A model generated the notes under the pieces. That model saw nothing but the letters and a program-made list of their open reading frames with translations, was not told the origin of the DNA and made no database searches. From NCBI GenBank assembly GCA_965219085.1, contig OZ244720.1, forward strand, positions 2,688,001-2,752,000: DNA of 64,000 nt, written 5' to 3'. Positions 15,208-23,734 of this stretch are shown here, piece by piece (position 1 is the first letter of the stretch; every line of letters starts with the position of its first letter). Source of the stretch: Dehalococcoidia bacterium (lineage in GTDB: Bacteria; Chloroflexota; Dehalococcoidia; UBA2979). Made by a program: the position numbers and the translations under genes.

Positions 15208-16671
15208 ATGGCGCACTGGGATGGCGCGGAGGGCCCAGTGGCAAGCGACGCAGCGAGTACGTGGCGGCCGTTGCGGGTGAAGCTCGCCTACTCGGCGGGC
15301 AACTTGCCGGGCCAGGTGATCTCGCAAGCGTTCGCGCTGTGGCTCATCTTCTTCTACGCACCACCCGCCGGCGAGGACGCCCCGACGTTCATCCCCTCGC
15401 TCGGCCTGCCCGACCTCGACCTCGGGCTGTTCGCGCTGCCGGACGAGCTCGCGCCTAGGGTGCTACTCGGTCTCACGCTGACCATCGCGGGCATCGTCGA
15501 GGCGTTCGACGACCCGATCATCGGCTACCTGACGGACCGCACGAAGTCGCGGTGGGGGCGTCGCATCCCGTACGTCGTGCTGGCGACGCCGTGGTGGGCG
15601 TTCCTGTTCTTCCTGCTGTTCGTGCCGCCGTTCGGTGACGGCAGCATCGCGAACCTGCTGTGGCTGGTCGTGGTGCTCGAGGGCTACTGGCTGGCCAGCA
15701 ATATCTCAGGCGCTCCGCTCGAGGCGCTCATGCCGCACATTGCGAAGAGCCATGCGGACCGCGTATCGGTGGCCTCGATGCAGCTCGTGTTCGGCATCCT
15801 CGGCGCGTTCATCGGGCTCGCGGTCAGCTCGGTGCTGATCGACATCGTCGGGTTCCCGACGATGGCGGGCATCCTCGCGGTCGTCGCGTTCGTTGGGCGC
15901 TACGCGTCGTTGGCGGGGTGCTGGGACTACGCGCGGACGGACGACGAGCCCTCGACGCCCGGACTCGTGCGGTCGGTGCGCGAGACGCTCTCGAACCCGC
16001 ACTTCATCGCGTTCCTGCCGGGCTTCATCTTCTTCCGCATCGCGCAGATCATGATCACCGCGTGGATCCCCTTCTACGTCGCCGCAGTACTCGGGGATGT
16101 CGAGGCGTTCGGGTTCAGCGGCGCGGAGGACGAGGGCGCGTTCACGTCGGCGATGACGGCGCTGATCATCCTCGGGGTGCTGGCGGGGATCGCGATCTTC
16201 GCGCCGCTCGCGCGGCGCGCTGGCAAGGCGCGCGCGTTCCGCGTGTCGATGCTGTGGGGGGCGGCGACGCTGTTCCTGCTGTTCTTCGTCGGGTTCGTGC
16301 CGGGCGTGCCGAAGCTGGTGCAGACCGCCGTGACCGTGCTGTTCGCCGCCTTCCCGCTAGCCGGCGTGTTCATGCTGCCCAACATCCTCATCGCCGACAT
16401 CGTCGACCACGACGCGGAGCGCACCTCGACGCGTCGCGAGGGGATGTTCTACGGCACGCAGAACCTGCTGGAGAAGAGCGCCTCGGCGTTCGCGCCGCTG
16501 ATCTTCGCGCTCGTGTTGCTGGCCGGCGACAGCGCCGAGGACCCCCTCGGCATTCGCCTCGTCGGCCCCGTGGGCGGCGTGCTGCTCCTCATCGGCTGGT
16601 TCTCGTTCCGCCGCTACGCGCTGTACGACGATGTGCGCGGTGGCCAGGCGAGCGAGGTCGATGCAGGGTAG
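15208..16671 (+). CDS. MFS transporter, GPH/MelB-like
   Basis: DPIIGYLTDRTKSRWGRRIPY, ADIVDHD...RREGMFYG; about 12 TM segments. Confidence 0.88.
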   Translation: MAHWDGAEGPVASDAASTWRPLRVKLAYSAGNLPGQVISQAFALWLIFFYAPPAGEDAPTFIPSLGLPDLDLGLFALPDELAPRVLLGLTLTIAGIVEAFDDPIIGYLTDRTKSRWGRRIPYVVLATPWWAFLFFLLFVPPFGDGSIANLLWLVVVLEGYWLASNISGAPLEALMPHIAKSHADRVSVASMQLVFGILGAFIGLAVSSVLIDIVGFPTMAGILAVVAFVGRYASLAGCWDYARTDDEPSTPGLVRSVRETLSNPHFIAFLPGFIFFRIAQIMITAWIPFYVAAVLGDVEAFGFSGAEDEGAFTSAMTALIILGVLAGIAIFAPLARRAGKARAFRVSMLWGAATLFLLFFVGFVPGVPKLVQTAVTVLFAAFPLAGVFMLPNILIADIVDHDAERTSTRREGMFYGTQNLLEKSASAFAPLIFALVLLAGDSAEDPLGIRLVGPVGGVLLLIGWFSFRRYALYDDVRGGQASEVDAG

Positions 16672-16749
16672 CGGGGGGCAGGACTGTCGCCAGGGTCACA
16701 GGCTGAGTAGTGCCCGGGTAGCCCGTACTATCGTAATATTACAAACTCG

Positions 16750-19116
16750 ATGGCCATCGCGTATGAGCGGATCGAATACTCGGAGGGACCTGCCGTGGCG
16801 TGGGATTTCTTGGACGACATTCCGATGGATAAGAGCTACACGCTCGATCAGCTCACGGGCCGCTTCCAGTCCATGAGTAACGGGCTCCCGGAGCTCGTCA
16901 AGAACTCCAAGGACCAGTACATGAGACTGGGAGTGGATGAGCGCTCAGACCGACAGATTCTCGTGATCGCCTCTCCGACTCACGGAACGCTTGGTGTGAT
17001 CGATTTTGCGGGAGCTGGATTGGCGGATTTCGACGGTTGGCTAACCTGGTCGAGCCGCACGGCGGGTCGTGGCGACCTTTCTGGTGATATCGAAGCAGGG
17101 CACGGGAATGGCGGAAAGGCGTTCATGGTGCGTGGCTCCTCGGGCGAGTCCTTCATGGAGTCCTGCGCACTGGGCAAGCGAACGAAGATGGGCTTCGATA
17201 GCTCCTCCTCACGGTATCTATACATTCCGGCTTACGCTCGGGAGGGCAGCGTACAGGTCAAGGACGTAGACGAGAATGACGTTGTCGGTCGACTCGCTGA
17301 TGTGCTCACGGCCTTTGGCTTGGAATTCTCGGAAATCCCACCAGCGTGTCAGCGAGCGTTCGAACAAAGAAATGCCTTCACAGCTGTCGTGATCGGGGAC
17401 GTGCGGGACTGGCGAGGACGGAGAGCGCAGACTGTACAGCGACTCGCCGCCGAGATCCCCGAGGCCCTGTCCACGCACGCGCAAGCTTCGCTCACTATCG
17501 AGATGTGCGAGGTCCTGGTCATGGCAGGGAGCCAAGTCATCACGCCCGGACCGATCTCAGTCGAGTACCCCGATCCACGTGGGGGCTTCGAGGACCTGCC
17601 GCTGATTTCAGTGCCGAGCAGGTTGCCAGACCCCCGGACCAGAGAGCAGGTTTCCACCCTCGGTGAGCGGGGAGGCTCGGGGTCACTTCAGCTGCGAACG
17701 AGTGCCACCCACTTGCGCATGTCGGATCGGAACAAACCGCTAAACGTGATCAGGGTGCGCAACGCCCGCAACATCGTGGGCTCCTGGACCTTGGCCGACT
17801 TGGCACCGATTGCGGAGTCGGCCTTCGTCTACGGCGTGCTCTCGCTCCCCGCATTGAGAGGTGAACATCTCGCCGGCGCCGACCGGATGGGATTCGCCGA
17901 TACACCGCTGGTCCGCGCGGTGGCGAGCTGGCTGTCGGAACAGGTCGAGGATCTAGCGGAGCGAATCCGGGCCGCCAACGCAGCGCAGAACAGGCCCGAA
18001 GATCACGAGAAGGCGACGAACGCACTCGACAAGATGCGCGATCTGATGCGGAAGTATGTCGAGGCGAATAGGCCTGACGCTGGCCGTGGGCACGGTGAAG
18101 GGGAAGGCCAGGAAGGCCCGTTCCCTCCGCCACCGCCCGGTCCTCAGTGGGGCACAAGCGTTGACGAGATCGTACTTGAGCAAGGCAGCGATATGATCGC
18201 AGCGGCGGTCGGCACACAGGTTCCCCTAGTGTTCAGGGCTTACGAGATCACCGATTCAGGCGAGCGCCACCCGGTACGGCACGCAGAACTGGTTCTTGAG
18301 GCCGACGTTCCGGGGATAGTTGATCTTGAAGGGCGCGCTTTGCAAGTATTGAGTGAGGGCGCCACCGACGTGCGCCTTGTATCGCTCGACACGGGAGCAC
18401 GCTCAGATACAGTTCTTGTGGAGGCTGTTGTTTGCACCGGCGTGGACATCATCCCGCCCGGCGATCAATTGAAGCGGGGTCAGCGGTCACGGCTGACCGC
18501 GTCGTTCCATACTCCGTCAGGACACCGGACGGATCTGCTGATGCAAGCTTGGGTCGATGAAACAGACATGGGTACCTTGGGACGCACAGGTTACTTTACG
18601 GCCGGGTACTTGGAAGGCACCGCGACTTGTGCCGTACGCTATGGCGAGGCCAGGATCGATGTTCAGCGTGAGTTCGTAAACATCGGGCCAGAGGTCGCCG
18701 AGCGGCCTGGCGTCGGTGGGAGCGACATTCCGCTCATCCTGCTTTGTAGAACAGATGCTCCTGGCACCGAGGATCGCACCGCCGAGCAACGGACGCATCC
18801 GGGAGGGCCCGAGCACGCTACCATTATTGAGGAACCTCAGTGGCCTAACGTCGTTTGGATCAACCCTGAGAGTCAGGAAAGTCGGCGAGTTCGGCGGCGA
18901 GGGCCCGTAGGCCAAACGAGGATCACTACAAAGACGTACACTCAGTTCTTGGCGCTGAAGTGCTTCGAGATACTGAAGCGCCTGATAGTCCGCTCGGCCT
19001 TAGCTGGGGAGCGCGTTACTGAGGTGCGCTACACTGCTGAACTCACGCAGGCCGAGATGGATGCCGCAGGGTTCATCGATGACGCATATGCACTTGCCGA
19101 CGAGTTGACCCAGTGA
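16750..19116 (+). CDS. GHKL (MORC/Hsp90-like) ATPase-domain protein
   Basis: LPELVKNSKD (N-box), VIDFAGAG (G1), GHGNGGKAF (G2); then helical segment, poly-Pro and beta-rich C-terminal region; atypical codon use. Confidence 0.75.
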   Translation: MAIAYERIEYSEGPAVAWDFLDDIPMDKSYTLDQLTGRFQSMSNGLPELVKNSKDQYMRLGVDERSDRQILVIASPTHGTLGVIDFAGAGLADFDGWLTWSSRTAGRGDLSGDIEAGHGNGGKAFMVRGSSGESFMESCALGKRTKMGFDSSSSRYLYIPAYAREGSVQVKDVDENDVVGRLADVLTAFGLEFSEIPPACQRAFEQRNAFTAVVIGDVRDWRGRRAQTVQRLAAEIPEALSTHAQASLTIEMCEVLVMAGSQVITPGPISVEYPDPRGGFEDLPLISVPSRLPDPRTREQVSTLGERGGSGSLQLRTSATHLRMSDRNKPLNVIRVRNARNIVGSWTLADLAPIAESAFVYGVLSLPALRGEHLAGADRMGFADTPLVRAVASWLSEQVEDLAERIRAANAAQNRPEDHEKATNALDKMRDLMRKYVEANRPDAGRGHGEGEGQEGPFPPPPPGPQWGTSVDEIVLEQGSDMIAAAVGTQVPLVFRAYEITDSGERHPVRHAELVLEADVPGIVDLEGRALQVLSEGATDVRLVSLDTGARSDTVLVEAVVCTGVDIIPPGDQLKRGQRSRLTASFHTPSGHRTDLLMQAWVDETDMGTLGRTGYFTAGYLEGTATCAVRYGEARIDVQREFVNIGPEVAERPGVGGSDIPLILLCRTDAPGTEDRTAEQRTHPGGPEHATIIEEPQWPNVVWINPESQESRRVRRRGPVGQTRITTKTYTQFLALKCFEILKRLIVRSALAGERVTEVRYTAELTQAEMDAAGFIDDAYALADELTQ

Positions 19117-19129
19117 AGGTGAGGCCACG

Positions 19130-19798
19130 ATGCCCCCGACGGCTGCACAGGTCGTTGTGCTTGCCGCTGTAGACCTCGTTGATACGGGGAGTGACGAATT
19201 CTCCGAGTGGGACTTGACCGTCGCGGCCTGGAAGCGCGACGCCAGTCGCTTCGGATGCCGCGGATACGAAGATCTCTATCCGGACCACAAGCGTGTGATG
19301 ATGGAGATCATGAGCCGGAAGAAGAAGGATAACCCGCTGCGTCGAGGCTGGATGGAGAAGGTACGGCCGAACTACTACCGGGTTACTCCGCTGGGGGTCG
19401 CTGAAGCTCGAAGGATCGGCGGATCTGGCCTGACTCCGTCGGCAGCTCCGGCGCCTCACGCGGTGTACGATGCTGTAATCCGTTACGTGGAGCATCCAGT
19501 TTTTCGTCGCTACCTTGAGGACAGCGATGAGCCAAGATCATGGGTGAGTGCCGCGTCATTCTTGAATCTCAATCAAATGACCGCCCTTGAGCTGGATGAC
19601 ACCTTGCGAGCAGCCTCAGGGGCGGCACGGGCGGCGTGCGAGTGGTTCCGAGAGTCAGGGGAGGTCACCCTTCGGAGGGGCCAAGGCGGTGGCGGACGAT
19701 CGATCCTGCGAGCCGAAGTAGAGCGGCTCCCGGAGTTCCTTGGTACCCTCGAGGCGCGTTTCGCCCCCCAGATGGAGGCACTCCGCGAGCGCACTTGA
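19130..19798 (+). CDS. hypothetical protein, probable N-terminal winged helix
   Basis: 222 aa, GAGG RBS, 13 nt after the ATPase stop; RRGWMEKVRPNYYRVTPLG resembles a wHTH wing. Confidence 0.7.
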   Translation: MPPTAAQVVVLAAVDLVDTGSDEFSEWDLTVAAWKRDASRFGCRGYEDLYPDHKRVMMEIMSRKKKDNPLRRGWMEKVRPNYYRVTPLGVAEARRIGGSGLTPSAAPAPHAVYDAVIRYVEHPVFRRYLEDSDEPRSWVSAASFLNLNQMTALELDDTLRAASGAARAACEWFRESGEVTLRRGQGGGGRSILRAEVERLPEFLGTLEARFAPQMEALRERT

Positions 19799-19827
19799 GG
19801 AAGCGACTGCTTGGGATGCAACGATCT

Positions 19828-20810
19828 CTATTGGAGTGAGATGTCGCGGAAACGTGCCTCCGAAGTCGCGGCGTACGTCTCGTCAGCTTCGATAGCTAGC
19901 CATCTACGCTCGAGCGATTCCGCGACAAAGCCTGTAGTGTTACTGCCGGCGAACGGATCTAAGATAGTGTCACCGGGATCAGTAACGAACTTCACAAAGA
20001 ACTCTACGAGCTTCTGCGGCATTCGGGCGGGATGTGGATCTAACCCGTGCTTTCGACAGAACTCTTGGTAAGGATCGGCCGATCGAGTATTTGCGATCGG
20101 CAGGACGTCGTAGAGATCCATTAGGAGATCCTCAGCTGGTGGCGCCAAGACGTTCGGTGGAACGGCACCACCGCGATCGTTCAGGAACGATGTCTGTCCT
20201 ATCAGGTGCTCTGACGGTCGAGTTCCAGCGTTGTACGTGCCACGCCGCAGTAGACGCTTCATGGCGTCGCTATACTCTGTAAGGACGTGATGGTTATCTG
20301 CTTTCGGGCGCTCACTCGGAGCGAGCCACCACACACGTGTGAAGGCATCCTTTACGCGGATGTGCTCGACGTTCACCCATTGGACGGGTGATGGTAGACG
20401 GGCAGGGTTGAAGCAGATGAACTCTTGGCAAAGATGGAGCCCGGCGGATTCTTGAAATTCGAGAAGAGCCTTGAGCGGAAGGGTCGACATGGTCGGACTT
20501 CCTGGCTCCCAAGCGTTGCCTATTCGAGCACAATCGATCCATCAGGGGCCACATAGTCGCGGAACGTACTCGCAAATGAGGCGAGCCACGTCACATATGC
20601 TCGACCGGTGAGATTGCCGTACTTCTTCTTGCGATTGAGTGGGAAAGGTGGCGAGGTCAAGATGAGCTGTATGTGCTTGCGGTGTGCAGTGATTGGTTCT
20701 GCTTCAAGCAATGACTCTGCTTTGCCATAGAACATTGAGCCGCGGTGCGTGGAGTACAGAGGCTCCGCCGGGCGGGGGGATCTAGGCACCGCGAGCAACC
20801 TGCCTGCCAC
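19828..20810 (-). pseudogene. beta-class N4-cytosine DNA methyltransferase (M.PvuII-like), frameshifted
   Basis: TSPPF, FNPARLPSPVQWVN, HPARMP, DPFAGSNTTG; restoring one A at ~20523 joins the ORFs as IVLE-IGNAWEPGSPTMSTL. Confidence 0.85.
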
Positions 20811-20948
20811 AACAGCTGGCAGTCAGCGGCGGGTAGGCTAGGGCGGACAGCCAGTGCATGCGTGCACCGTATCACGCCGCCCCGCGCGGGCGCGATGTAG
20901 ACTGCGCCCCGGCCCGCCGCGCGGCGGGCGCTTCGAAAGGACGACGCG

Positions 20949-21908
20949 ATGCCGCTACATCCACAGGCGCAGGCATTCCTCGAAGTGGTCGAGGCAGCCA
21001 ATGCCGCGCTCCCGCCGCTCGAGGAGCGCGACCCGGCAACGTGGCGGCAAGAGGGCCTCGACCTGGCCGCGCAGGCGCGCGACCTGCCGTTCAGCCCGCC
21101 CGTCCACGCCGAGACCGACCGCACGATCCCGGGCCCGGCCGGTGACATCCCGGTGCGCGTGCTCACGCCGGCCGCGGGCGGCCCCTACCCCGTGCTCGTG
21201 TGGTTCCACGGCGGCGGCTGGGTACTCGGCGGGCTCGACGGCGGCATCCACGCGCTGCGGCTGCTCGCCAACGTCGCGAACTGCGTGATCGTCTCGGTCG
21301 ACTACCGGATGGCGCCCGAGCATCGCTTCCCCGCGGCCGTCGACGACTGCCTGACCGCGACGCGGTGGGTGGCCGCGCACGCCGCCGAGGTCGGCGCGGA
21401 CCCGTCGCGCATCGCCGTCGGCGGGGACAGCGCGGGCGGCAACCTCGCCGCGGTCGTGGCGCAGCTGGCGCGTGACGGCGGGCCGGACCTCGCGTTCCAG
21501 CTCCTCGTCTGCCCCGTCACGGACTCGGACTTCTCGCGCAAGTCGTACATCTCGAACAACGAGGGCTACCTGCTCAGCACCGAGATGATGGAGTGGTTCT
21601 GGGCGCAGTACATGGGCCCCGACGGCGACCGCACCGACCCGCGCGTCGCGCCGATGCGCACCGAGGACCTCGGCGGCCTGCCGCCCGCGCACGTCATCGC
21701 CGCCGAGTACGACCCGCTCGCCGACGAAGCCGTCGCGTACGCCGAGGCGATGGAGGCCGCAGGCGTCGACGTGACGCTCGTGGTGGCCGAGGGGCACATC
21801 CACGACTACGTGATGAACCTCGGGATCATCGACGACGCCGAGACCGCCATCGCCGACGTGGCGCGCAACATGACGCGGGCGTTCCAGCTCGCCGGAAGCG
21901 AGGACTGA
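20949..21908 (+). CDS. alpha/beta hydrolase, HSL/Aes-family esterase
   Basis: HGGGW oxyanion motif, GDSAGG nucleophile, AEYDPL, GHIH. Confidence 0.92.
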   Translation: MPLHPQAQAFLEVVEAANAALPPLEERDPATWRQEGLDLAAQARDLPFSPPVHAETDRTIPGPAGDIPVRVLTPAAGGPYPVLVWFHGGGWVLGGLDGGIHALRLLANVANCVIVSVDYRMAPEHRFPAAVDDCLTATRWVAAHAAEVGADPSRIAVGGDSAGGNLAAVVAQLARDGGPDLAFQLLVCPVTDSDFSRKSYISNNEGYLLSTEMMEWFWAQYMGPDGDRTDPRVAPMRTEDLGGLPPAHVIAAEYDPLADEAVAYAEAMEAAGVDVTLVVAEGHIHDYVMNLGIIDDAETAIADVARNMTRAFQLAGSED

Positions 21909-22468: not shown

Positions 22469-23422
22469 CTAGAAGACGGCGCGGCTGTCGAGGTCCTCGG
22501 AGGACATCGGCTCCGCGAAGACCTCGGGGACGGGGCCGTCGCCCCACCACTCGATCTCGGGTTGCAGGCGCACGCCCGCATGGTCGAGCACGCGGCGTTG
22601 CACCTGCGCCATGAGCTCGACCATGTCGGCCGTGGTCGCGGTGCCGTCGTGGACGAAGAAGTTGGCGTGCAGCTCGCTCACCGTCGCAGCGCCGACCGCG
22701 AGCCCCTTGCACCCCGCCGCCTCGATGAGCCGCCCCGCGTAGTCGCCCTCGGGGTTGCGGAAGACCGAGCCGGCGTTCGGGCCGGCGGTCGGCTGCGTGG
22801 CCTGGCGGTGTTCGAGGAGCGTGCGCAGCTCGGCCTCGATCTCCTCCTTGGGGCGCGGCTGCAGCCGCAGCGTCGCGCCGAGCACCATCACGCCCGCCCC
22901 GCGCAACGATGAGCGCCGGTAGCCGAAGAACAGCTCGCTGCGCGGAATCGTCGAGCGCCCGCGCCCGCCGAGCACCTCGACCTCCTCGACGAGCAGGCCG
23001 ACCGAGCGGCCGTCGCCGATGCCCGCGTTGCTGTTGAGCGCCCCGCCGACCGCGCCCGGTATGCCGATCGCGAACTCGAGCCCGCCGAGGCCGCGCTCGG
23101 CCGCCGCGCGGCTGAGCGCGGGCAGCATCACCGCCGCCCCGGCCACGACGCGCTCGCCGATGAACGTGAACGATCCGGCCGCCCGCCTAAGCGAGACGAC
23201 GAGCGCGTCGATGCCCTCGTCGGCGACAAGCAGGTTGGAGCCCCCGCCGAGCACGCGCAGCGAGAGCCCCTCGGCGCGCGCCCAGCCGAGCAGCTGCTGC
23301 AACTGCTCGATGTCCTCGGGAATCGCGAGGTAGCGCGCGGGGCCGCCGAGGCGCAGGTAGGTGTGCCGCGCGAGCGGCGCGTGCTCGTGCACCTCGATGT
23401 CAGCGGGAGGGGGTGCGGTCAT
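22469..23422 (-). CDS. murB: UDP-N-acetylenolpyruvoylglucosamine reductase
   Basis: LGGGSNLL, GIPGAVGGA..NAG, FGYRRS, NAGSVFRNP, HANF, LQPEI. Confidence 0.94.
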   Translation of the reverse strand: MTAPPPADIEVHEHAPLARHTYLRLGGPARYLAIPEDIEQLQQLLGWARAEGLSLRVLGGGSNLLVADEGIDALVVSLRRAAGSFTFIGERVVAGAAVMLPALSRAAAERGLGGLEFAIGIPGAVGGALNSNAGIGDGRSVGLLVEEVEVLGGRGRSTIPRSELFFGYRRSSLRGAGVMVLGATLRLQPRPKEEIEAELRTLLEHRQATQPTAGPNAGSVFRNPEGDYAGRLIEAAGCKGLAVGAATVSELHANFFVHDGTATTADMVELMAQVQRRVLDHAGVRLQPEIEWWGDGPVPEVFAEPMSSEDLDSRAVF

Positions 23423-23515
23423 GGTTCGTATGGTAGGGGAGGGACCGGATGGCGGCTGGCGACCAGGGTGAGGGCAGCGTCCCGAGGACGCGGCCTATGG
23501 TTTGATGCCACCAGC

Positions 23516-23734
23516 GGGCAGGCGCACGCGAACGGCATCGAGAGCTTCTGCTCGATGCTCGAGCGCGGCTACTACGGGACGTACCACCGGATGAGCCCGA
23601 AGCTCCTGGCGCGCTACGTCGCCGAGTTCTGGGGCCGCCACAACATCCGCGACCTCGACACCATCACACAGATGGCCGTCGTCTCACGCGCGATGGTGGG
23701 CCGCCGCCTCACCTACGAGCGGCTGATCAACTGA
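23516..23734 (+). mobile_element. IS1595-family transposase C-terminal remnant
   Basis: GQAHANGIESFCSMLERGYYGTYHRMSPKLLARYVAEF...RRLTYERL; N-terminal Zn ribbon and most of the DDE core absent. Confidence 0.85.

Follow-up and report, generated by a model that had tools for sequence, protein, structure and literature searches.

A horizontally mobile trio of genes, found in scattered bacterial and archaeal genomes, was identified in a 64,000-nucleotide (nt) stretch of a Dehalococcoidia bacterium genome (contig OZ244720.1, positions 2,688,001 to 2,752,000; hereafter the window, in whose numbering all positions are given). The trio is the whole content of a low-GC inserted island of 4.2 kb at 16674..20885. 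Gene A (16750..19116, plus strand) encodes a protein of 788 amino acids (aa) with a GHL-type ATPase module, two immunoglobulin-like (Ig) domains and a C-terminal domain; gene B (19130..19798, plus strand) encodes a 222-aa protein made of a winged helix (residues 1-100) and a helical C-terminal domain; and M (19828..20810, minus strand) is an M.PvuII-like beta-class N4-cytosine-type DNA methyltransferase with a 1-nt deletion at about 20521. The observed features of this cassette are its gene content and folds, the conservation of its motifs, the linkage of its genes and its mobility. We tentatively interpret it as a self-contained, methylation-linked conflict or defence cassette, similar to restriction-modification (R-M) systems and built on an ATP-gated DNA clamp; the defence role is one that we infer from patchy distribution, mobile-element neighbours and analogy. 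An earlier reading made from the letters alone (the sequence-only reading) had already proposed an uncharacterised methylation-linked defence system at this place, and its claims are taken up below with the results that bear on them.

The linkage of the three genes was evaluated by searching for the same arrangement in other genomes. A first genome scan with the single A protein returned 134 pattern matches and no relative, and it was redone with an alignment. The alignment scan, covering one genome each from 185,579 species, found 21 loci, whose hosts are Acidobacteriota, Planctomycetota, Alphaproteobacteria, Armatimonadota, an Exiguobacterium bin and bins of Woese- and Pacearchaeota (DPANN). 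By tblastn, B lies directly 3' of A in 16 of the 21, the other five being cut by contig ends or having a partial A, and all 16 possess an N6_N4 methylase (15 by Pfam, and locus L018 by tblastn, in two pieces). The set was then completed with 3 IMG/VR and 80 metagenome loci, giving 104 loci that fall into 81 groups at 95% nucleotide identity over the A region; groups in which A is truncated or the flank is too short were left out of the counts, and the 3' end of A is complete in 62. B stands next to A on the same strand in 55 of the 56 groups with at least 750 nt downstream, the exception being L109, whose A-like gene is divergent and encodes 896 aa. Of the 43 groups with at least 2300 nt downstream, 41 contain a methylase, 40 detected by tblastn with seven methylase queries and one (L077) by Pfam; the two misses are L109 and L057, where an AbiEii gene comes next. 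Among the 40 placed by tblastn, the methylase is convergent right after B in 31, co-directional after B in 2, upstream in 6 and further downstream in 1. The stop codon of A overlaps the start of B in 41 of 57 loci and is 0-25 nt away from it in 16, counts that are biased to short gaps because the in-frame B start nearest to the A stop was used.

This co-occurrence, together with an A homologue of 1020 aa (P0067) to which an N-terminal MTaX1 ("methylase-associated X1") domain is fused (E 3.9e-10), bears out the link with methylation that the sequence-only reading had proposed. MTaX1 is described, in the accessible part of the source, as potentially involved in discriminating modified DNA and as noted in several R-M systems (PMC10853773). 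The same content is also found in a deep subfamily, represented by one genome of the same class (G033), whose A relative is only 28% identical to A: its locus holds a PF01555 methylase, a 122-aa open reading frame (ORF), a 779-aa A-like protein with Big_2 and a 225-aa B-like protein that matches the B profile (hhalign probability 99.6, E 3.5e-24). On a conjugative plasmid of Ensifer adhaerens, the annotation "hypothetical protein" is given to A, to B and to a small ORF upstream. Three IMG/VR contigs matched the cassette, and no match was found among the INPHARED cultured-phage records.

Some copies depart from the common form. In an alphaproteobacterial bin (L018:917-4927) a decaying copy has A spread over several ORFs and the methylase in two overlapping pieces. 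At L045:1165-5125, A lacks about 55 residues at its end, a PLDc_2 (HKD) protein takes the place of B and a 209-aa N6_N4 methylase ORF follows. In the G033 locus a gene of the UDG superfamily comes directly after the cassette (L034:5964-6593), followed by RNase J and FtsK.

The A protein was modelled with AlphaFold2 from a 77-row alignment, with a mean predicted local distance difference test (pLDDT) of 89.7, and the domains that follow are all encoded on the plus strand. Residues 25-235 (16822..17454) form a GHKL (Bergerat) ATP-binding domain, recognised from its motifs, Foldseek and VIA, and residues 240-385 (17467..17904) an S5-like transducer domain, the two occupying residues 20-413 or so of the model. 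Residues 386-465 (17905..18144) comprise a helical hairpin at 386-440, with helices at 386-412 and 416-439, and then a low-confidence proline-rich linker in which pLDDT falls below 50 (445-462). Two Big_2 bacterial Ig-like domains occupy residues 466-650 (18145..18699) and are the least conserved folded part, while the C-terminal domain, alpha/beta plus three helices at residues 658-788 (18721..19113), is the most conserved one. Mean pairwise identity is 0.55 for this domain, 0.50 for GHKL, 0.48 for S5, 0.35 and 0.44 for the first and second Ig domain and 0.22 for the linker.

GHKL ATPases are defined by motif I (ExxxNxxD), a DxGxG-like motif II and motif III (GxxGxG). A has ELVKNSKD at 48-55, DFAGAG at 85-90 and GHGNGGK at 117-123, so that the ATP site consists of an N box with E48, N52 and D55, a G1 box with D85 and G88 and a G2 box from G119 to K123; the spacing of the G1 box (DFAGA) is a variant of motif II. 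E48, K51, N52, D85, G88, G119, G121 and K123 are invariant in 77 of 77 sequences, down to 20% identity. The boxes quoted by the sequence-only reading are thus all present, as are its PPPPP (near 456-463) and VWINPES (702-708) strings. Its N-terminal GHKL fold is confirmed by the model too: the first Foldseek match is MORC2 (9cdj, E 8.5e-10), followed by TRAP1, Hsp90, MORC3, SMCHD1 and MORC4. However, the label "GHKL/MORC-like" is sustained only in its first half. Since MORC, Hsp90/TRAP1, MutL and SMCHD1 are tied as structural neighbours, MORC is too specific and "GHL-type" is the safer name. The segments that had been called Ig-like by eye are indeed Big_2 domains (residues 458-638, profile search against the PDB, E 1.6e-18).

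Neither protein belongs to a named family in the collections searched. A has no match in Pfam (a single 15.6-bit match is at chance level), PADLOC, NCBIfam, PHROGs or the PDB sequences, nor to Pfam HATPase_c or HATPase_c_3 at E<=0.1; B likewise has none in Pfam, PADLOC, NCBIfam, PHROGs or the PDB sequences, except for Fis at 17.7 bits against a cut-off of 122; and PADLOC recognised 0 of 32 family members. The description of the cassette as uncharacterised therefore stands. Homologues are nonetheless numerous: there are at least 198 of A at E<=1e-3 among 8000 candidates scored and at least 519 of B among 3567 candidates scored. The A representatives at 50% identity number at least 247, and 85 of these reach E<=1e-30. 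The homologues listed for the two proteins are unnamed or "hypothetical", apart from one B homologue with the JGI name "PadR family".

A cryptic effector, in B or in the C-terminus of A, had been suggested by the sequence-only reading. In the model the C-terminal domain of A has about 130 residues, folded as three short strands and four helices. Across 77 sequences P661 and N705 are invariant and P696 and S708 are conserved in at least 90%, and no acidic residue reaches that level, although alignment error at 20% identity might hide a conserved one. In the close family the invariant residues are R681, N705, S708, E710, R715, K737 and E769, and all 15 aligned sequences have an acidic residue at position 694. 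Over the whole protein, D294 is the sole acidic residue outside the ATP site that is at least 90% conserved in the 77 sequences. None of 15 members matched Pfam in this domain, and a PDB profile search gave chance-level matches only. An atlas feature search returned unnamed clusters (0.93) and DUF6551 (0.90), both in the chance range, and DUF6551 was not found in 41 related genomes or in controls. A relationship with ParB was considered and rejected (hhalign probability 0.06). Features resembling topoisomerase VI were also evaluated: the winged helix of B carries invariant Y46 and Y83, Pfam shows no Toprim, and the 77 A sequences have no conserved acidic pair in the C-terminal domain. In keeping with the sequence-only reading, searches of A and B revealed neither a nuclease family nor a nuclease fold, although both C-terminal domains are barely covered by the fold searches.

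For B the model has a mean pLDDT of 91.6 and consists of a winged helix with a helical remainder, in agreement with the earlier call of a probable winged helix-turn-helix protein. Identity among B proteins is about 50% across phyla. The recognition helix, YPDHKRVM-E-M, is identical in all main-family loci whatever the type of the adjacent methylase, and the deep subfamily alone has a different one, YPDSNRVFAEIMG. Because the helix does not vary with methylase type, B is probably a general DNA- or A-coupling subunit and not a reader of a specific site, unless all linked methylases share one site; for the same reason a role as specificity reader co-varying with the methylase is unsupported. B was compared with kleisins (MukF/JetA-like) as well, and this candidate was rejected: the whole-chain Foldseek match is weak (E 0.017, template modelling score 0.31) and only the winged helix (2-99) aligns, tied with winged helices of MarR, PadR and ORC. 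A search for longer, fused forms of B found none, which is weak evidence. The predicted complex of A (22-788) with B scored 0.00 and is uninformative either way.

M consists of two pieces on the minus strand, an N piece of 96 aa (20520-20810) and a C piece of 220 aa (19828-20490). From stop to stop the two frames run over 20520-20822 and 19828-20541; they differ in phase and overlap at 20520-20541, which is characteristic of a single-base indel near 20521. The identification as a convergent M.PvuII-like methyltransferase, made before from the letters, is supported by PF01555 and by the PADLOC profile MTase_II PDLC03323, matched by the C piece at E 6.2e-62 (profile 101-296) and by the N piece at 2.5e-16 (profile 7-82), and by the intact homologue from locus L008, which matches M.PvuII (1boo) at E 1.1e-70. 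The N piece carries SPPF, the C piece FAGSNTTG. A 1401-nt contig from a public sequencing run, X6, covers 19525-20924 with 5 other letters and 1 gap (about 99.6% identity), the gap being an extra A behind 20521 that restores the frame. As a sister population keeps the intact frame at this identity, the lesion is recent. In the window genome, therefore, M is frameshifted next to intact A and B. The genome holds five other intact PF01555 methylases elsewhere, one of them PvuII-like. Over 327 aa this second PvuII-like enzyme (L026:488-2415, on G000:C1 at about 1.03 Mb) shares 39% identity with the L008 methylase. It is directly followed, in the same direction, by a 326-aa ORF that has no Pfam match, and the two are probably a separate Type II R-M pair. 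The enzyme could conceivably cover for the broken M.

The mobility of the cassette is evident from composition and from empty sites. The nine 500-nt bins across 16500-20999 have GC fractions of 0.56-0.65, against 0.68-0.70 in the adjoining bins upstream and 0.70-0.77 downstream. The flanking genes, already recognised as host-like, encode a MelB-like transporter (best PDB sequence match E 5.5e-13) and a family-IV esterase, Est8-like (E 5.1e-85). We aligned Logan contigs of four public runs to window positions 16000-21600. In run X6, one contig joins 16673 to 20886 with 21 other letters in between (depth 4.3) and another joins 16213 to 20904 with 25 letters in between (depth 10.2). These joints define the island limits as 16674-20885, with only A, B and M inside, and indicate that the island is carried by some relatives and absent in others. 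The three-gene insert of the sequence-only reading is in this way established. Contigs of runs X2 and X4, which belong to one study, equal the window letter for letter over 16471-21290, the M deletion included; they are perhaps the assembly's own source sample and so do not count as independent support, while X6 differs from them in study and organism label. Within X6, island-bearing contigs (depth about 2) coexist with the island-free joints (depth 4-10) of close relatives. No convincing terminal repeats or target duplications of the island were found. A true A homologue is present in 0 of 18 genomes of the same genus, one of which has a 95-residue match (E 1.1e-5).

Only an AT-rich gap of 78 nt separates the transporter gene from A. 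It contains a perfect 10-bp palindrome, GTAATATTAC (16733..16742), read from the sequence and ending 7 nt before the start codon of A, which is possibly an operator. No obvious Shine-Dalgarno sequence was seen ahead of A, and promoter and terminator scans gave sites no commoner than in shuffled sequence. Farther downstream, GC dips locally to 0.65 at a 123-aa ORF (23363-23734), which on visual inspection resembles a C-terminal fragment of an insertion-sequence-type transposase.

In contrast to the constant A-B-M core, the gene upstream of A is variable. Of the 63 groups whose upstream sequence is 1000 nt or longer, 11 have U1 (about 205-270 aa), 21 have U2 (about 70-85 aa), 5 have U3 (about 323 aa, archaeal type) and 26 have none of these, the window locus being of the last class. 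The upstream accessory genes have no Pfam match; by eye the conserved C-terminal half of U1 is winged-helix-like, U2 is a small helical protein, and no nuclease family was found in them by Pfam or by inspection of the U1 and U2 motifs. Large serine recombinases occur near the cassette in L003, L006 and L022, primases (Prim-Pol/D5 and DUF3987) in L007 and L009, and conflict genes in L003 (PIN-MazE), L010 (YaaC), L004 (McrB-like AAA_5) and L011 (FRG). No helicase or nuclease is conserved beside A and B (Pfam, 51 and 103 neighbouring ORFs, 21 loci), the only helicase-type neighbours being single cases, SNF2 in L005 and Lhr in L020. In L002:517-5713 a 501-aa HATPase_c_3 (paraMORC-type) protein, a 292-aa protein and a Fic protein adjoin the cassette, and an SMC gene lies downstream. 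In L004:3020-7180 and in L023 (Ensifer plasmid NZ_CP118613.1) the methylase is about 4 kb upstream of U2-A-B and parted from it by an oppositely oriented AAA_5 (McrB-like) ATPase and a 409-aa protein, a pair that is possibly a second system lying inside the cassette.

It is possible to propose how such a cassette might work. GHL ATPases, which include MutL, Hsp90, MORC and type II topoisomerases, dimerise through their C-terminal parts and have N-terminal gates that are closed by ATP. In plants and animals, MORC-type GHL ATPases silence methylated or foreign DNA. By homology with M.PvuII, M would be a beta-class enzyme marking host DNA, probably with N4-methylcytosine. A and B would be made together from one transcript; the A dimer would be held by its C-terminal part, and its GHKL and S5 gates would close upon ATP binding to form a clamp around DNA, by analogy with other GHL ATPases. 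The winged-helix protein B would couple this clamp to DNA, a task that, at other loci, may be shared by a fused MTaX1 or by an exchangeable DNA reader encoded upstream. Unmarked DNA would then be disabled, most likely by ATP-dependent entrapment or compaction blocking replication and transcription, as with MORC and SMCHD1, and not by a canonical nuclease. The close coupling of A with B, their linkage to a methylase and the fusion with MTaX1 suggest that the module treats marked and unmarked DNA differently, and its mobile, patchy distribution fits a conflict system. The A-B complex, the clamp action, the reading of methylation and the nuclease-free effector step are parts that we infer.

Whether the effector step is free of a nuclease divides the two foremost explanations. 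In the first, which is possible but should be regarded with caution, the cassette performs nuclease-free, methylation-reading DNA silencing as a prokaryotic counterpart of MORC and SMCHD1: a GHL clamp loaded by B would entrap or compact DNA without N4-methylcytosine, and the Ig or C-terminal domain would sense the DNA or its mark. In the second, about which we are equally reserved, the same defence cassette has a cryptic nuclease, so that the C-terminal domain of A (less likely the helical domain of B) would cut unmethylated DNA under the licence of the GHL module, as in MutL, Tiamat and GHKL-Shedu. This explanation draws on the highest conservation in A being that of the C-terminal domain, on the polar residues that the close family keeps there (R681, E/D694, N705, S708, E710, R715, K737 and E769), on L045, where a PLDc_2 protein has replaced B next to an A without its last 55 residues or so, and on known GHL defence proteins with C-terminal nucleases, namely DUF4263 in VcSduA (PMC12137116) and PD-(D/E)xK in Tiamat (10.64898/2026.09.30.754977), as given in the accessible parts of these sources. 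However, sequence profiles match no nuclease family or solved chain, the four residues conserved in at least 90% of the deep alignment include no acidic one, and in this strain intact A and B are tolerated alongside a frameshifted M. Entrapment or silencing is slightly favoured over a cryptic nuclease, both being tentative, because no nuclease is visible, the deep alignment has no conserved acidic cluster, the accessory modules appear to be DNA binders, and the strain survives with A and B intact while M is broken. It should be noted that the last of these arguments is weak.

Several observations weigh against a nuclease-free defence clamp. The C-terminal domain is the best conserved part of A and keeps E710, E769 and an acidic residue at 694 in the close family, which makes a non-canonical nuclease quite possible. 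The tie of A to HATPase_c_3 at the sequence level is not significant by Pfam, by hhalign or through distant relatives: hhalign against a bona fide HATPase_c_3 protein gave E 0.16 with only the N box aligned, and the best HATPase_c_3 score among 34 distant relatives is that of P0251, 19.3 bits, below the cut-off of 25. The invariant helix of B leaves the reading of a specific unmethylated site unexplained. The tolerance of a broken M could be due to a very recent mutation or to cover by another methylase. Finally, a defence context is not universal, since L012, L014, L019 and L021 lie among housekeeping genes.

This last point also speaks for a role outside defence, as a MutL-like, methylation-coupled module of DNA maintenance or repair, or as a regulator of the carrying element, and so do the UDG-family gene adjoining the G033 copy and the strain's tolerance of M loss. 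We consider it unlikely, given the extreme patchiness (21 loci in 185,579 species genomes and no true homologue among the congeners), the presence of the island in only some relatives, the recombinases, primases and toxin-antitoxin genes that are frequent alongside, and the swappable upstream genes. Somewhat less probable still is that the window copy is an inactive, decaying remnant. M has its deletion, seen in the X2 and X4 contigs too, and both A and M are fragmented in at least one other locus (L018); however, every family-invariant residue is kept in A and B, the sister population shows the lesion to be recent, and X2 and X4, as the possible source of the assembly, add no independent support. 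Least likely of all is an ordinary Type II R-M pair, in which B would be the fast-evolving cognate endonuclease of the PvuII-like methylase and A would serve as an accessory ATPase. This reading is favoured by the adjacent, convergent position of B and M in 31 of the 40 tblastn-placed loci and by the size of B, 222 aa being typical of Type II endonucleases, and is contradicted by its winged helix plus helices in place of an alpha-beta-beta-beta-alpha-beta nuclease core, by an identity of about 50% across phyla and a helix invariant irrespective of methylase type, unlike Type II endonucleases, and by the fact that no examined locus has B without A (55 of 56).

As a compact test case (three genes in 4.2 kb, found across phyla, with neither a helicase nor a recognisable nuclease), the cassette could show whether a GHL clamp and a methylase suffice for discrimination of self from non-self, how cytoplasmic Ig domains act on DNA, and whether restriction without a nuclease occurs beyond BREX-like systems. 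It also adds two unannotated protein families, with at least 247 representatives of A at 50% identity and at least 519 clusters of B, and one highly conserved new domain.

Among known systems, PvuII R-M shares with the cassette a methylase, M being a clear M.PvuII homologue with the SPPF motif and convergent to its partner genes; the partner, however, is an ATPase and winged-helix unit, and no R.PvuII-like or other PD-(D/E)xK endonuclease was found. MutL differs in that the C-terminal part of A has no Pfam match, Ig domains are inserted, and the gene is mobile and not part of the core genome. Eukaryotic MORC2, MORC3, MORC4 and SMCHD1 are 9-15% identical to A, with Hsp90/TRAP1 and MutL scoring within 1 Z unit of them; A is devoid of their CW, coiled-coil and hinge domains and is found in a prokaryotic operon. 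Tiamat and GHKL-Shedu (VcSduA/paraMORC3) are, like A, GHL ATPases, used in phage defence and sometimes found beside methylases; from the accessible parts of the sources, Tiamat has DUF3684 and PD-(D/E)xK, Shedu has a DUF4263 nuclease, and both are able to act as single genes. Pfam and PADLOC found no DUF3684, DUF3883 or DUF4263 in A, and because of this and of the 0 of 32 PADLOC matches the cassette is neither of these systems.

The closest comparison is with the MORC and paraMORC1-5 GHKL and S5 ATPases, which were predicted to function in R-M operons with superfamily II (SF-II) helicases, nucleases and mostly cytosine, rarely adenine, methylases; in the same work, as far as its accessible part goes, the MORC family is unified by a MORC-specific sequence motif (PMC2292703, Iyer, Abhiman and Aravind 2008). 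The R-M role of MORC and paraMORC is still termed proposed in the accessible text of a 2026 preprint on Tiamat (10.64898/2026.09.30.754977). On the basis of these partial descriptions, paraMORC operons and the cassette have in common an N-terminal GHKL and S5 module with intact ATP motifs, a linked methylase, a sporadic, laterally mobile distribution and a family-specific C-terminal extension. The differences are that the GHKL domain of A is too divergent for Pfam HATPase_c and HATPase_c_3, that A has two Big_2 domains and a new C-terminal domain, that the winged-helix partner B is obligate, that the methylase is a beta-class N6_N4 (PvuII-like) enzyme, and that the conserved SF-II helicase or nuclease neighbour defining most paraMORC operons is missing. 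Full-text literature searches, with subscription journals and supplements outside their scope, found no description of this architecture and partner set, which thus appear to be undescribed; the general kind to which the cassette belongs, MORC and paraMORC ATPases in R-M-like operons, was already predicted in 2008.

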